Assembly (NCBI RefSeq): GCF_030013205.1
Contig: NZ_CP122648.1
From: Escherichia coli
Lineage (GTDB): Bacteria; Pseudomonadota; Gammaproteobacteria; Enterobacterales; Enterobacteriaceae
DNA: 64,000 bases
Strand: one strand, 5' to 3'
The position numbers and the translations under genes are program-made. The notes beneath the pieces are model-generated. The model searched no databases, had not been told where the DNA came from, and was given only the letters and a program-made list of their open reading frames with translations. Shown here piece after piece: positions 42,890 through 53,604 of the stretch (its first letter is position 1; every line of letters starts with the position of its first letter).

Positions 42890-44368
42890 TCACGCATTCG
42901 ACCAGCTCTGGATCGAATCCGCATTCCCCAATTCCCCATGCATCACTTCATACGATTTTTTCAGGATTACATCAGTATGTTTGGTTAACTCCTTGAAAAT
43001 GCCTTTATTCATCGCGTCGTAGCGTTTGGCATTGTTCTCAACAGGCATAAAGATATCTTTCACGCGAACCATTTTGTCGACAGCCGTTGCGTAATCCGGG
43101 TATAGCCCCAGACCTACCGCCGTATTAATCGCTGCCCCCAGGCTTGCACAACCATTAATGGCGTTACGGCGTGCCGGAAGGTTGAACACGTCGGCAAAAA
43201 TCTGCATAAACAGATCGCTGTTCGAACCGCCGCCAGTAATGATCACATGCTTTGCAAAGTGATTCATTTCATTACACATATTGTCGAAATTGTTCTTCAG
43301 CGTCAGCGCCACGCTTTCCAGTATCGAACGATATATCCATGCGTAATCCATGCTGGAATCAAAGCCGATCATAATCCCGCGTTTGTACGGTTCCCACGGA
43401 TTGGTCAGCCAGTCCAGCACCGTCATCAGACCATTACAGCCTGGCGGCACACAAGAAGCTTTTTTGTTGAGTAAATCTTCCGGTGAAAGATCCTGCGCCC
43501 TGGCATCCTGAATTAACGACTCGCCTAGCATGTCGCGCAGCCAGCTCACCGTCCACATGCCTTTGCGAATACCGTAACCTTCATACAGCAAGGTTTGCGG
43601 AATAGAAGACATAATCGGCCAGTACGCTACCGGATCTTTCGGCAGTACTTTGCCGTTCATCATCAACGCGATGTAAGTGCCAAGAGAAATTACCGCAGTT
43701 TCATCATCCAGTAACCCGGCTCCCAGTGCTTCTACCGGTTTATCACTGGTGGTACAAACAACCGGCAGCCCAGCCGGGAAATGTGTCGCCAGCGCGGCTT
43801 GAGGTGTGATATGCCCAAGAACAGTGCCCGGCATTTGCACATCAAACAGCATATGACGGGGGATATTAAACTTCTTCATGACTGCGGCATCTTCACTCCA
43901 TGCCCAGGTCTTATAATCCACCGGCCACTGACCAAAATAGTTGGCGATATTGTCTTTAAACTCGCCGGTTAAGCGATGCGTCAGATAACCCGAAAAAGAG
44001 GTGACATATGCCACGTCAGGATTCGTATGTTCGTAAGGGCGTGTAACGCGTGCATCCTGCCAGCTAATCAACGGTGCAGCTGGCGTGCCATCGGCTTTCA
44101 ATAACGCACGGCAGCAACGGATGGATCCCAGACCAATACCGACAATATCGTCTTTATTCCCGGCAAACTGACTCATCAAATCGTGACCGGCAAAACATAA
44201 TGATGCCCATAAATCGTCGTCAGGATGTTCTGCAGTATCGGCATCTGGCGTGTGCATCGGCTGTAATAAGCCTTTGCCTTCGCAAACCACGTTACCTTCC
44301 AGATCGTACATCACCACTTTTGTGCTCTGACTTCCGCCATCAATCCCTATGATGTATTTTTTCGACAT
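42890..44368 (-). CDS. ygcE: FGGY-family carbohydrate kinase
   Basis: 492-aa ORF with N-terminal GIDGGSQSTK kinase motif. Confidence 0.85.
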   Translation of the reverse strand: MSKKYIIGIDGGSQSTKVVMYDLEGNVVCEGKGLLQPMHTPDADTAEHPDDDLWASLCFAGHDLMSQFAGNKDDIVGIGLGSIRCCRALLKADGTPAAPLISWQDARVTRPYEHTNPDVAYVTSFSGYLTHRLTGEFKDNIANYFGQWPVDYKTWAWSEDAAVMKKFNIPRHMLFDVQMPGTVLGHITPQAALATHFPAGLPVVCTTSDKPVEALGAGLLDDETAVISLGTYIALMMNGKVLPKDPVAYWPIMSSIPQTLLYEGYGIRKGMWTVSWLRDMLGESLIQDARAQDLSPEDLLNKKASCVPPGCNGLMTVLDWLTNPWEPYKRGIMIGFDSSMDYAWIYRSILESVALTLKNNFDNMCNEMNHFAKHVIITGGGSNSDLFMQIFADVFNLPARRNAINGCASLGAAINTAVGLGLYPDYATAVDKMVRVKDIFMPVENNAKRYDAMNKGIFKELTKHTDVILKKSYEVMHGELGNADSIQSWSNA

Positions 44369-44394
44369 GATTTTTCTCCTGTAATTTTCTGGAC

Positions 44395-45672
44395 TTACTT
44401 GCTGCTAGCCATAGCAGGGGCGCTATCAGCAGTACGAATTTTTTGGAACAGCAAAAAGGTAAAGACGATCACCATGGCAAGCGCCGCCATGCCCATCAGC
44501 CACATATTGCGGTAGGCTTCTGCTACGGGCAGGGTGTCTTGCCAGTGGCCGATAATTGGGTAAACGAAGACATCCGGCAGAAATCCAATCACCGAACAAA
44601 TACCTACCGTGGTGCCCATAATGTAAGACGGTGTTCTCGCTTCGCCAGGGCAGGCCCAGTACAGCCCGCGTGAGGCGTAACAGGTGAATCCCAGTAATAA
44701 AATCAAGCCAATCCCCATCGCGACCGATTGCGGGTTAGAGTTCGTGACGAGCAGGGCTGTCAACGCCAGCAAACCGATGATGGAAAGGATTTGGACCACG
44801 CGGGTAGGGGATTTCACTTTACTGTAGGTGGTGATAATGCCGCCAAGTGGGCCGCACAGCGCGCGGAAGATTTTGTTGATCACAATCCCCATGTAGCTCG
44901 CCGCCACCAGCGACATGCCGTACATTTCGGTCAGATAATTGGTGGAGTAACTCAGGATGGCGTAGATGGTGAAGACGCCAAAAATCACCATGCTGCAATA
45001 CCAGGTGGTGCTGATACGCAAAACGGCAAGGATGTCGCTAAGCTGGAATGACTGTTTTTCTTCGTTGTTAGTATTGCGCAGGTTGTTGTTATCGCTAACA
45101 AAAAACCAGCACAGAATCCCCAACAAGATGTAAACCACACTATAGATAATAATGACCGTTTTCAGGCTGGCGCTGTCATCCGGTGCAAAGCGAGAAAAGA
45201 CCCACATGGTAAACACCGCCAGCGACATTACACCGACGCCGCGCAGCCCTTCCATCCAGCCCATAATTTTCCCTTGCTCGCTATGATCGCCCAGCAACGA
45301 TGCGGCTTTAATCGACACCGACCACAGCATTAAAATCGTCGTTATCGCAAAGGCGACCTGAATACAGAGCATTACCCACAGCGGTGGATATGTTGCCATT
45401 AACAGACCCAGTAATCCGGTAATGATCATCGCGGAAGTAATCATTTTGCGGTGTGAAAATTTATCGGCAATAACGCCGCTGGGGGCATAAAGAATAATAG
45501 CCGCAATACCAAAGGTACTCATTATTAAACCTATCTCGGTATTGCTGAATCCCATAAATTTCGCCATGGGAATTTGATAAATATAACGTAAATAAGCCAG
45601 GTCGAAACTAACGCCGCCGCTAAAACTAATTATCGCGAGGGTTATCCAACGGCGATATGAGTTGTGTTGCAT
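44395..45672 (-). CDS. yqcE: MFS transporter
   Basis: 425-aa polytopic membrane ORF upstream of ygcE on the same strand. Confidence 0.85.
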   Translation of the reverse strand: MQHNSYRRWITLAIISFSGGVSFDLAYLRYIYQIPMAKFMGFSNTEIGLIMSTFGIAAIILYAPSGVIADKFSHRKMITSAMIITGLLGLLMATYPPLWVMLCIQVAFAITTILMLWSVSIKAASLLGDHSEQGKIMGWMEGLRGVGVMSLAVFTMWVFSRFAPDDSASLKTVIIIYSVVYILLGILCWFFVSDNNNLRNTNNEEKQSFQLSDILAVLRISTTWYCSMVIFGVFTIYAILSYSTNYLTEMYGMSLVAASYMGIVINKIFRALCGPLGGIITTYSKVKSPTRVVQILSIIGLLALTALLVTNSNPQSVAMGIGLILLLGFTCYASRGLYWACPGEARTPSYIMGTTVGICSVIGFLPDVFVYPIIGHWQDTLPVAEAYRNMWLMGMAALAMVIVFTFLLFQKIRTADSAPAMASSK

Positions 45673-45696
45673 ATCGTATTCCCATTTGTAATAGAC

Positions 45697-52065: not shown

Positions 52066-52081
52066 AAATTATCCTTATTAT

Positions 52082-52342
52082 TTATCCAAAACGGTAGGTG
52101 ATGCCGAATCCGGAAGGCGGATAGCGCCACTGTTGTAGTGTTGATTCGTCGCACAGCAAACGGCAGGTGCCACACTCCAGGCAGCCGCGATAATCAACGC
52201 GTAAGTCACCTTCCGGTGTGAGCGAAAAAAGACCAGCCGGACAAGCGTTAATCAACCGTTGTACCGTCTGACGCTCAACGGAGTCAGCCGGAACAATGTG
52301 CGGCGCATCGGCAACGCGCCAGAGATTACGGGCTACAGACAT
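52082..52342 (-). CDS. ygcO: ferredoxin-like protein (FixX-like)
   Basis: Start set at MSVARN (ATG 52340-52342, CAGGAG RBS); Cys cluster CxxCxxC; ORF-track start is an upstream GTG. Confidence 0.8.
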   Translation of the reverse strand: MSVARNLWRVADAPHIVPADSVERQTVQRLINACPAGLFSLTPEGDLRVDYRGCLECGTCRLLCDESTLQQWRYPPSGFGITYRFG

Positions 52343-53604
52343 CGCAGACTCCTGATAACATCGCCCGCCAGATGCCACAGGCCGTGACGACGTAAATGAC
52401 GCCAGAATAACTGGCGCAGCGGTGGAACAGGTTTATCACCCTGATCCCATAAATCGCGGGAAATATCCTGCATTAACGCAGGCCACGCACGGTACCATCC
52501 AGGGCGTTGCAAAAGCGCCGGAACATGCTGATAACGTTGTAGAACATCCCATAGCAGGCTGCGCTCGACGTTGTGATGATAAAGCGCAAACAGATTTTGC
52601 GGCTCGCGGTGCTGGCAGGCGCTTATCAGCGTTTGTGCCGCCGCCTGCGCGCCAGTTAGCGCCATATCCATGCCGCGCACGGAAATTCCGGTATTGACGC
52701 AACTGCGCAACGTATCGCCCACCAGCAGCCAGCCGTTACCGGCGTATTGCACCGGCATACTGTGCAAGCCACCTTCTGGCACCAGATGCGCACCATACTC
52801 CAGTGATTCCGTGTTTTTGATAAGCGGGCGCACTGCCGGATGCGTTTTAAAGCGAGCCAGCAGCTCGCATGCCGGAGCACGACTTTGCGTAAGGGAGGAG
52901 AGCGGGCAAACAATCCCTAACGAGAGCGTTTGTTGATTAGTATAAAGAAATGCGCCGCCGGGTAAGTCATCACAGATCCCGCCGCTGAACAGCAACGCTG
53001 CGCCTTCGTTATTCTCCAGATGAAAACGTTCTTCAATAGCGGATGTTTCCAGCGACAGCACTTCTTTGATTCCTAACGCCATTGATTCGCCAGCAGGACG
53101 AGTCACTAACCCGTGACGTTCAGCCAGGACGCTGTTGGCACCTTCTGCCAGCACCACATAACGGGCGCGGAGAATATCGTCACCACAAATGACACCACAC
53201 ACCCTGCCGTTTTCTTCATACAGCGCATCCACCGTCGCACCAGGGATGCATTCGACACCTTCTTTTTCGGCTTCGGCAACCAGCCACGGATCGAACCGTG
53301 CACGTAATACACTCCAGGATTCACCGCCGGGCTGTAAGCTGGAAAACGTCGTTGCGCCATCCGGCGTTAGCAGAGAAAGGCTTTCGTGAGTGATGCGTCG
53401 TTCAAGAGGCGCGGTCAGATGAAATTGTGGGAGGAGTTCCGCGAGCGCCTGGGTATATAAACGCCCGCCGGAAAGATTTTTGCTGCCGGGGATTTCAGCG
53501 CGTTCCAGTAACAAAACGGATAAACCCGCTCGCGCGCAGCGTAACGCGCAAGCGGTGCCTGCAATACCGGCACCAATAATAATAATGTCGCAGTCGTCTT
53601 CCAT
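52333..53604 (-). CDS. ygcN: FAD-dependent oxidoreductase (FixC / ETF-QO-like)
   Basis: Start set at MEDDCDIIIIGAGIAG (ATG 53602-53604); GxGxxG FAD motif. Confidence 0.8.
   Translation of the reverse strand: MEDDCDIIIIGAGIAGTACALRCARAGLSVLLLERAEIPGSKNLSGGRLYTQALAELLPQFHLTAPLERRITHESLSLLTPDGATTFSSLQPGGESWSVLRARFDPWLVAEAEKEGVECIPGATVDALYEENGRVCGVICGDDILRARYVVLAEGANSVLAERHGLVTRPAGESMALGIKEVLSLETSAIEERFHLENNEGAALLFSGGICDDLPGGAFLYTNQQTLSLGIVCPLSSLTQSRAPACELLARFKTHPAVRPLIKNTESLEYGAHLVPEGGLHSMPVQYAGNGWLLVGDTLRSCVNTGISVRGMDMALTGAQAAAQTLISACQHREPQNLFALYHHNVERSLLWDVLQRYQHVPALLQRPGWYRAWPALMQDISRDLWDQGDKPVPPLRQLFWRHLRRHGLWHLAGDVIRSLRCL

Follow-up and report, generated by a model that had tools for sequence, protein, structure and literature searches.

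In Bacillus subtilis the protein GlpP, together with glycerol-3-phosphate, disrupts a terminator in the 5′ untranslated region (UTR) of glpD, glpFK and glpTQ, and each of these promoters combines a core with a GlpP site and a terminator (PMC9604022). Alkyl-dihydroxyacetone phosphate (alkyl-DHAP) synthase (AGPS or ADPS; EC 2.5.1.26) removes a proton from C1 of a DHAP ester; an adduct with flavin N5 forms and the group at C1 is expelled, for which the enzyme must carry oxidized FAD (PMC3509576). Within Escherichia coli the caiTABCDE-fixABCX and ydiQRST gene sets combine a dedicated electron-transfer flavoprotein (ETF), alpha and beta, and a FixC/FixX-type pair with a pathway-specific flavoenzyme. 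We have analyzed ten contiguous genes of E. coli that share features with all of these systems, namely ygcE, yqcE, ygcW, ygcU, ygcS, ygcR, ygcQ, ygcP, ygcO and ygcN. They lie at positions 42890-53604 of a 64,000-nt stretch of contig NZ_CP122648.1, the whole of which we call the window.

Taken together, the ten genes are best explained as a single predicted catabolic regulon that would be inducible, to which we assign a probability of roughly 0.5. New here are a pair of unannotated leader RNAs that are linked to CRP sites and absent from Rfam, the AGPS-like nature of YgcU, and a link to betaine transporters under the same leader. The ten genes are among the larger E. coli K-12 gene blocks still without function, and the leader, the YgcU signature and the betaine link together narrow the substrate to a testable class. 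Full-text literature searches using the gene names, GlpP and BCCT/FGGY/ETF/AGPS/MttB/homoserine-betaine found no functional study of the cluster or its homologues, and the description of these genes as orphans in an earlier, sequence-only reading is borne out by the literature on the gene names. Apart from the Crp listing of yqcE-ygcE given below, searches on the gene names yielded only a 1.7-fold induction of ygcU by D-serine and a ygcU deletion without phenotype (PMC13012123), and the presence of YgcR among the MazF 'death proteins' (PMC2646832). A mention of 'ygcO' in a review of PTS-Ntr was discarded as a typographical error for ycgO.

Between positions 42000 and 54400 the window is 100% identical to E. 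coli ETEC4079 (NZ_CP122643), and the RefSeq annotation of the latter was used. It gives the same ten genes and outer coordinates as the list of open reading frames. The family assignments made at the outset (FGGY, MFS, short-chain dehydrogenase/reductase (SDR), FAD_binding_4, ETF, FixC and GlpP) were all upheld by profile searches, and the ten genes, their families and their co-occurrence across phyla fit the single coherent catabolic module that had been proposed. The features are as follows.

42890-44368, minus strand: ygcE, FGGY-family kinase
44395-45672, minus strand: yqcE, MFS_1 permease, co-transcribed with ygcE
45697-45764, minus strand: leader copy 2, directly upstream of yqcE-ygcE, with terminator and antiterminator
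45794-45809: CRP-like site TGTGAgagtaaTCACg with one mismatch, its center about 41.5 bp before leader 2 begins
45851-45866: perfect CRP consensus TGTGAttacgaTCACA, its center about 41.5 bp before the ygcW transcription start predicted at about 45900
45897-45965, plus strand: leader copy 1, upstream of ygcW; antiterminator helix of 45902-45908 with 45924-45930, terminator stem 45918-45959, then a U-run
45990-46775, plus strand: ygcW, SDR of the KduD / gluconate-5-dehydrogenase type
46845-48299, plus strand: ygcU, FAD enzyme resembling alkyl-DHAP synthase but lacking the N-terminal domain of AGPS
48392-49729, plus strand: ygcS, MFS permease, sugar-porter / aromatic-acid / organic-cation-like
49707-50486, plus strand: ygcR, ETF beta subunit
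50483-51343, plus strand: ygcQ, ETF alpha subunit
51490-52065, minus strand: ygcP, GlpP-family (PF04309) protein, proposed ligand-dependent antiterminator for both leaders
52082-52342, minus strand: ygcO, FixX-like ferredoxin
52333-53604, minus strand: ygcN, FixC/YdiS-like flavoprotein (ETF:quinone oxidoreductase type)

Two leader RNAs and the GlpP-family protein YgcP

The divergent gap between yqcE and ygcW is 318 bp long and contains two CRP consensus sites. Both regulated operons have an intrinsic terminator in the 5′ UTR, downstream of the promoter, each with a U-run. In copy 1 this is a 19-bp GC-rich hairpin (45918-45959) followed by eight T, lying 30 nt before the ygcW start codon. The folding energies are -32.6 kcal/mol for copy 1 (z -5.7) and -22.3 kcal/mol for copy 2 (z -4.0). 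A short box, CAGTTACYAGAG, is located just 5′ of the terminator and is able to pair with the terminator 5′ arm. By itself the antiterminator has an energy of -6.7 kcal/mol, and because it is weak termination is therefore the expected default state.

The hairpin is conserved in both sequence and structure, with the form GAGAAAAGTAACTTCC...GGAAGT..GCTTTTCTC-U7-9. It precedes the ygcW orthologue in other Enterobacterales, in Photobacterium, Sporomusa, Geosporobacter and Dethiosulfatibacter, and in Halobacillus, Thalassobacillus, metagenome-assembled genomes (MAGs) of Bacillota, and Saccharopolyspora. As judged by alignment, the leader is conserved in Proteobacteria, Bacillota and Actinomycetes. 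Both helices show compensatory change over 25 aligned leaders. The 7-bp antiterminator helix is 97.7% paired with both sides changed in five of the seven pairs, and the 17-bp terminator, with which it is mutually exclusive, is 89.7% paired with both sides changed in 10/17. Thus GTTAC/GTAAC becomes GTCGC/GCGAC in Saccharopolyspora, and AATTAC/GTAATT is found in Bacillota MAGs. The observed pairing values of the two helices were reached in none of 500 shuffles, and slid controls were far lower.

We built a covariance model, R1, from the leader alignment, with copy 2 lying outside the training set. R1 found copy 2 with a score of 57.8 bits (E ~1e-9), and all Enterobacterales loci that span the yqcE-ygcW gap have both leader copies. 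Scanning the 64-kb window with R1 revealed no third copy, whether ahead of ygcN-O-P or at any other place, and a BLAST search with the leader over E. coli genomes, which has limited sensitivity for diverged copies, gave a median of two places per genome. That ygcN-O-P has no leader copy suits a regulator gene needing expression before induction. Of 5063 E. coli genomes, 4531 carry the leader at 99% identity or more, with the flanking coding DNA at about 96.5%; K-12, O157:H7 and most other E. coli have the 69-nt ygcW leader without a single change. Nothing is annotated beneath the leader in the E. coli RefSeq records, and no Rfam 15 family matches the leaders at permissive E-values, that search giving only a weak repetitive extragenic palindromic (REP)/naRNA4-like match and a spurious small nucleolar RNA one.

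The center of each CRP site and the first conserved nucleotide of the leader that follows are about 41.5 bp apart. The predicted ygcW promoter has an extended -10 element, TGaTAAAAA, at 45885-45893, and both the CRP-to-leader spacing of 34-35 nt and the TGnTA extended -10 are kept in other Enterobacterales. Six CRP consensus sites were found in the window, with 1.9 expected. The yqcE-ygcE pair has been listed as a newly recognized Crp-activated operon (PMC8085971). The two leader RNAs with their CRP sites provide a concrete predicted target for YgcP.

YgcP matches the PF04309 G3P_antiterm family along its full length (E 1.6e-62, model positions 1-173 of 173), and sequence search matches it to PDB 3kts and 1vkf. 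Aligned from end to end, YgcP and the GlpP encoded in a Priestia glpP-glpF-glpK-glpD locus share 31% identity. We mapped the E. coli cluster proteins onto 83 related loci, taking a leader as present at a score of at least 40 bits. A ygcP homologue is found in 58 of the 83 loci, and 57 of these have a leader. Twenty of the 25 loci that lack ygcP also lack the leader; of the other five, four are truncated contigs and the fifth comes from a genome that has ygcP on another contig.

The arrangement resembles the GlpP/glp system in its promoter, 5′ recognition box, intrinsic terminator in the 5′ UTR and catabolite control, and in having an FGGY kinase that makes the presumed phosphorylated inducer. 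This layout is shared by the glpF and glpD leaders of Priestia, whose 5′ box is similar (AAGTTAATAGAT / AAGTTAATAAAT), and the ygc box resembles it (AAGTTACTAGAG versus AAGTTAATAGAT). The ygc regulon differs in containing no glp genes, and in being found in Gram-negative bacteria with CRP in place of CcpA. That the ygc leader is a known glp leader was rejected, R1 giving no significant match to the glpF/glpD leaders of Priestia or Lysinibacillus; its best score was 16.8 bits (E 0.24), with the Priestia glpD leader. We conclude that YgcP and its putative leader targets are a sister class of the GlpP system, not GlpP proper. By analogy with GlpP, we infer that YgcP binds RNA and a ligand.

YgcU and the genes shared across phyla

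YgcU had been read as a GlcD-like oxidase. Its architecture, a VAO-type FAD_binding_4 domain plus FAD-oxidase_C, is that required of an AGPS, and its best solved matches are alkyl-DHAP synthases, with E-values of 5e-40 when YgcU alone is the query and 4.5e-56 with the family profile. These match YgcU in both the FAD domain and the C-terminal domain, whereas GlcD, LctD and LDHD match in the FAD domain only, with LctD (PDB 7qh2) among the weaker matches. In the PDB alignments R262, Y398 and H438-H440 of YgcU align with R419, Y578 and the H615-617 loop of AGPS, catalytic positions that were read off AGPS mutant chains in the PDB set (4bc7, R419H; 4bca, Y578F). All are invariant in the cross-phylum alignment. 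The substrate/metal site of GlcD/LctD-type enzymes is formed by the motifs xEHGxG and GH..H in the C-terminal part. Neither is present in YgcU, which has HHHGIGK and GGHSSHSY...YF, and both are borne by the YgcU paralogues of related clusters that we term U2 (GEHG/SEHG/TEHG and FGH..H). Given the AGPS Arg/Tyr/HHH signature, the GlcD-like assignment has been replaced.

AGPS is the top match of YgcU in both sequence and fold. The identity is just ~25%. YgcU has 484 aa compared with 658 and aligns from AGPS residue 184 onward, and the roughly 180 residues of the N-terminal domain specific to AGPS are missing from it. An extra N-terminal domain has been described as unique to ADPS (PMC3509576). 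AGPS serves ether-lipid biosynthesis, whereas YgcU lies in a catabolic, transporter-linked and ETF-associated cluster, and this genomic context of transporters, kinase and regulator argues against a biosynthetic role. On these alignments, YgcU is AGPS-like in its catalytic site, yet not an AGPS.

The genes occur together across phyla in the 83 loci, so that the earlier reading, which was to fall if they never co-occurred, is not refuted on this count. Adjacent ygcW and ygcU plus an FGGY kinase are present in nearly all complete loci, with ygcP usually there, and this core is found in Proteobacteria, Desulfobacterota, Bacillota, Actinomycetes and SAR324. YgcU is unusually well conserved: it is 65-76% identical in Sporomusa, Halobacillus, Desulfobacula, SAR324 and Saccharopolyspora, and 65-90% overall. 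Over the loci compared, the SDR, YgcU and the FGGY kinase are the universal core.

In most loci ETF beta/alpha directly follow ygcU, and FixCX is limited to the Enterobacterales. All the domains required for an ETF plus FixCX-type ETF:quinone oxidoreductase module are present in the E. coli cluster. Profile searches identify ETF beta in ygcR (E 6e-11) and ETF alpha in ygcQ (E 4e-22), FixC/YdiS-type models score 379 and 362 bits against the YgcN flavoprotein, and the FixX ferredoxin model scores 83.9 bits against YgcO. All the scores fall under the equivalog cut-offs, and by this measure YgcR, YgcQ, YgcN and YgcO are divergent family members. The ratio of non-synonymous to synonymous substitution (dN/dS) is 0.01-0.05 for ygcW, ygcU, ygcP, ygcE and the permeases, 0.12-0.27 for ygcR, 0.13-0.24 for ygcQ and 0.05-0.2 for ygcN and ygcO; within Escherichia the four electron-transfer genes range over 0.07-0.27 and the others over 0.01-0.06. 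Rates of this kind point to an electron-transfer layer that is conserved, and far less constrained than the core. The genes and families of the dedicated ETF-FixCX chain that had been described stand, while the chain itself is an accessory, faster-evolving layer outside the universal core. Between E. coli and the Pluralibacter/Enterobacter group (L018-L026), ygcR, ygcQ, ygcO and ygcN are 38-62% identical, compared with 88-93% for ygcW, ygcU and ygcP.

Many anaerobes have a second FAD oxidase (U2), in some accompanied by another ETF that bears a ferredoxin domain in its alpha subunit. The resulting U2-R2-Q2(ferredoxin domain) triplet of Photobacterium and clostridial relatives resembles LctBCD of Acetobacterium woodii, where a VAO-family FAD dehydrogenase gene lies directly beside EtfB/EtfA. 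This likeness concerns U2, which is absent from E. coli, and YgcU itself is without the LctD/GlcD motifs. In L004, L063, L066 and L068 a GlcD/LctD-type U2 has its own ETF pair. Where the second ETF alpha was recovered (L004, L063 and L068) it matches the ferredoxin-domain form annotated in L004, resembling the LctBCD lactate dehydrogenase/ETF complex, and L063, L066 and L068 have an internal leader copy before ygcU-ETF.

The nearest solved relatives of the YgcE kinase are the autoinducer-2 kinase LsrK and glycerol kinases. E. coli YgcE shares 43-50% of its residues with kinases from the other proteobacterial clusters and 54-58% with those of Bacillota, and YgcU and YgcW show no break matching this outlier status. 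This suggests a gene replacement or a shift of specificity at the kinase step. The kinase type shared by E. coli, Citrobacter and Klebsiella is 43-50% identical to those of Serratia, Rahnella, Erwinia, Photobacterium and Desulfopila (L033-L049, L004, L051), which are 59-84% identical among themselves. YgcW scores 350 bits on the KduD model, slightly under the cut-off of 369. SDRs of the KduD / gluconate-5-dehydrogenase type oxidize a secondary alcohol that adjoins a terminal CH2OH.

The transporters vary by lineage. Enterobacterales have YqcE plus YgcS, the latter limited to their clusters, and yqcE orthologues of 57-80% identity adjoin the kinase gene in Serratia, Rahnella, Photobacterium and others. 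BCCT transporters are found in Bacillota, SAR324, Photobacterium and Vibrio, and OpuA-type ABC systems in the clusters of Syntrophomonadaceae, Fodinisporobacter and others. The leader precedes a BCCT gene in Sporomusa, Dethiosulfatibacter and two Clostridia MAGs, and a YqcE-type MFS gene plus kinase in Photobacterium and Limnobaculum, with a weaker match in a Eubacterium MAG. In one Bacillota MAG (L074, 6997-14033, minus strand) it precedes an operon for OpuA components together with a methyltransferase of the MttB family (non-pyrrolysine), a protein of the proline-racemase family and a PanB-like enzyme, and MttB-family genes recur in six loci. Because this cis-regulation is shared, the betaine-type transporters are taken to be genuine parts of the system. 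Across the family a betaine-type (N-methylated or quaternary-ammonium) substrate or product is probable on this comparison; for E. coli itself we propose such a substrate only tentatively. The exact compound is not deducible, as had been stated, whereas its class has been narrowed considerably by betaine-type transporters and MttB under the same leader.

Further genes recur in particular lineages. The Pantoea/Erwinia group has formaldehyde-activating enzyme (Fae), an aldo-keto reductase of the L-glyceraldehyde-3-phosphate reductase type and an aldehyde dehydrogenase. The leader operons of L074 and L071 (10004-16605, minus strand) share MttB, a PanB-like hydroxymethyltransferase, an OpuA ABC system and a protein of the proline-racemase / hydroxyproline-epimerase family, which hints at chemistry like that of proline or hydroxyproline betaine in those Bacillota MAGs. 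In Alkalihalobacillus oceani (L003, 1-11443) the cluster has neither ygcP nor leader, and its order is sigma-54 activator, OpuAC, fumarase/aspartase-family lyase, aldehyde dehydrogenase, zinc alcohol dehydrogenase, BCCT, SDR, kinase and YgcU. Speculatively, its extra enzymes might process a released hydroxy-betaine, from alcohol to acid and then by elimination of the amine.

As in the cai/fix system, the pathway of the ygc relatives would concern a quaternary ammonium compound. The ygc cluster differs from cai-fix and ydi in having no CoA-transferase, ligase or acyl-CoA dehydrogenase chemistry, its partner flavoenzyme being of the VAO/AGPS family, and the regulation we propose is by RNA antitermination, not by CaiF.

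Proposed pathway and rival explanations

The regulatory part of the model, CRP together with leader termination and antitermination via YgcP, is very probably correct. Two divergent CRP-dependent promoters would drive yqcE-ygcE and ygcW-ygcU-ygcS-ygcR-ygcQ, and each transcript would start with a leader of about 70 nt folding by default into a strong terminator. YgcP would be made from the separate ygcN-O-P unit. Together with a phosphorylated intermediate of the pathway it would stabilize the weak 7-bp antiterminator helix and so give read-through, by analogy with B. subtilis GlpP and glycerol-3-phosphate.

In the catabolic part, the MFS permeases would import a small hydrophilic compound having a glycerol-like terminal diol and a C1 substituent. 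YgcE would phosphorylate the primary hydroxyl, and YgcW would oxidize the neighboring secondary alcohol to a ketone, generating a C1-substituted DHAP. YgcU would then act at C1, via a flavin adduct or an oxidation, to give the released substituent and a product at the level of triose phosphate. YgcRQ and then the FixCX-type YgcNO would pass electrons to the quinone pool, either keeping the YgcU flavin oxidized or draining net electrons. Alternatively the ETF might accept the electrons of a net oxidation that frees the substituent and leaves a phosphorylated 2-oxo-aldehyde, an option suited by the aldehyde dehydrogenase and the reductase of phospho-aldehyde type that recur in clusters without ETF. 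We place the C1-substituted-DHAP chemistry a little short of an even chance.

A more specific version of this chemistry is doubtful. In it YgcE, YgcW and YgcU would form a hitherto undescribed, oxygen-independent route that runs AGPS chemistry 'in reverse', converting a glycerol with an onium or betaine group linked to C1 through a hetero-atom into triose phosphate and free betaine or amine by flavin-N5 expulsion, governed by a new phylum-spanning class of leader RNA that a GlpP paralogue recognizes. Candidate substrates would be deacylated betaine-lipid head groups, glycerophosphocholine-like esters and dihydroxypropyl-ammonium compounds. Particular compounds, namely glyceryl-trimethylhomoserine from diacylglyceryl-trimethylhomoserine (DGTS), glycerophosphocholine, 3-(trimethylammonio)propane-1,2-diol and proline/hydroxyproline betaines, were set aside as speculation, none being distinguishable from sequence. 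If the cleavage model is true, bacteria that include marine-sediment anaerobes and gut Enterobacterales would have a new means of recycling glycerol-linked quaternary ammonium compounds, with a bearing on osmolyte and methylamine cycling. If the regulatory model is true, GlpP-type antitermination would extend to Gram-negative bacteria, and the leader and its antiterminator would be a compact, portable inducible switch.

A number of points weigh against a single inducible regulon with this chemistry. The 25 leaders are related, hand-chosen sequences from three phyla, and their covariation counts are supportive and carry no formal probability. The order in which the kinase precedes the SDR, and the identity of the YgcP ligand, are what we infer, and the substrate assignment for the cluster proteins rests on sequence comparison. 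YgcU lacks the gating helix as well as the N-terminal domain of AGPS, which provide the fatty-chain tunnel. An AlphaFold2 model of YgcU made with a 12-sequence alignment is of moderate confidence (pLDDT 67); the top 30 Foldseek matches to it are all AGPS, with D-lactate dehydrogenases close behind, and because the model is moderate and these rank so closely the assignment of YgcU rests on motifs, not fold. The AGPS exchange is redox-neutral, so that a dedicated ETF is not obviously required, and ETF is absent from Halobacillus, Thalassobacillus, Virgibacillus, the Pantoea/Erwinia group, SAR324 and Saccharopolyspora. Non-synonymous evolution of the ETF/FixCX genes is 5-10 times faster than that of the rest of the cluster, which itself has been lost from ~6% of E. 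coli genomes. Finally, the E. coli cluster contains no BCCT, OpuA or MttB genes, and in view of this and of its divergent kinase lineage the E. coli substrate may differ from that of the relatives.

Many of the same genes would be expected in a generic cluster for a sugar alcohol or sugar acid, where the SDR and a GlcD-like oxidase oxidize a polyol or hydroxy acid, the kinase feeds glycolysis and ETF/FixCX passes electrons to quinone. An FGGY kinase with a KduD/Gno-type SDR is typical of sugar and sugar-acid pathways, as CRP control is of sugar catabolism; the E. coli permeases are of the MFS, one of them scoring as sugar-porter-like, and dehydrogenases of the GlcD/LctD type, including the LctD that matches YgcU more weakly, pair with ETF. 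We nevertheless consider this unlikely, since the substrate domain of YgcU matches AGPS without the metal-site motifs that U2 paralogues keep, the leader in other phyla controls BCCT/OpuA transporters and an MttB methyltransferase that would be unexpected for a sugar, and the neighborhoods examined show no recurrent aldolase, isomerase or dehydratase of the kind found in sugar routes. Electrons could also flow the other way. YgcNO and YgcRQ might bring low-potential electrons to YgcU for an anaerobic cleavage or reduction of a C1-substituted ketone, for example to amine and acetol phosphate, in the manner of CaiA/FixABCX. The other FixCX-type sets of E. coli serve reductive anaerobic reactions on a quaternary amine (cai/fix), those of the examined clusters that encode ETF are in facultative or strict anaerobes, with ETF missing from aerobic halophiles and actinomycetes, and some relatives have a second ETF with a ferredoxin domain. 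Against this, the SDR step is most simply oxidative, and the clusters without ETF would require some other reductant. AGPS-type chemistry begins with oxidized flavin (PMC3509576). A reductive direction is in our judgment distinctly improbable.

It is very unlikely that in E. coli the cluster is in decay, a cryptic remnant that now plays no physiological role. The lack of any phenotype or function in the literature searched, the loss of ygcW-ygcU from ~6% of complete genomes (in one example by an IS1-mediated deletion), the relaxed constraint on ETF/FixCX and the low expression that default termination in both predicted leader folds would impose are all consistent with decay. Yet ygcW, ygcU, ygcP, ygcE and both permeases are under strong purifying selection (dN/dS 0.01-0.05), the genes are intact in ~93% of genomes with synteny conserved across the Enterobacteriaceae, and the leader is better conserved than coding sequence. 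YgcP might instead be an enzyme of the pathway, with the leader terminators controlled in some other way or acting as riboswitches. The solved PF04309 structures (3kts and 1vkf) have a TIM-barrel-like fold with a phosphate-binding GG motif, and such a fold would suit an enzyme. The near-perfect co-occurrence of leader and ygcP over the 83 loci, an antiterminator helix too weak to form unaided, and a leader of just ~70 nt with little room for a ligand-binding aptamer make this highly improbable. The B. subtilis family member has moreover been established experimentally as an antiterminator, with the same layout of promoter, site and terminator (PMC9604022).

Conservation and surroundings of the cluster in E. 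coli

The whole block is covered to at least 80% in 5060 of 5426 complete E. coli genomes, and the ygcW-ygcU segment is full length in 5055 (~93%) and absent from ~325. The order queE-cluster-queD-cysJ is maintained in Citrobacter, Klebsiella, Enterobacter, Pluralibacter, Cedecea and others. The locus had been called an island. Its near-core distribution and conserved synteny do not agree with that term, and a horizontally acquired, strain-variable genomic island was rejected on both grounds. The GC content of the cluster is 0.42-0.57, mostly ~0.5, with a dip over the intergenic regulatory region, and no integrase is annotated around the cluster in the ETEC4079 RefSeq record.

The cluster is placed between two queuosine genes, queE and queD. 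A CRISPR array had been given as one flank and cysJIH as the other. The array, at 41979-42251, does lie on one side, between queE and ygcE; on the other side queD stands between ygcN and cysJ. The array is short, no cas gene is annotated from eno to cysI, and in strain PK8277 it is 456 bp. Within 39803-40830 the ETEC4079 annotation has ygcG as a pseudogene with an internal stop, and a small neighboring gene as frameshifted. In the convergent ygcQ/ygcP gap there is a weak match to the REP-derived naRNA4 family at 51392-51424 on the minus strand (29 bits, E 0.06, below threshold), which is probably a REP element.

The ygc region of this strain is ~96-97% identical to that of most E. coli, with just 20 genomes at 99% or above, and a control flank (20000-30000; gud, queF, barA) is ~98% identical to other E. 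coli. In E. coli PK8277 (L088, 4879-9899, equivalent to about 43000-52000 of the window) four copies of IS1 are present. They disrupt ygcE and yqcE and stand in place of everything from ygcW to the greater part of ygcP; ygcO and ygcN are intact. Two loci, L005 and L028, are probably contamination or mislabeled assemblies. This pair comprises a 'Planctomycetota' MAG contig with a ygcU 100% identical to that of E. coli, and a 'Chryseobacterium sp. 18061' contig that has a typical Enterobacteriaceae cluster linked to queD-cysJ.

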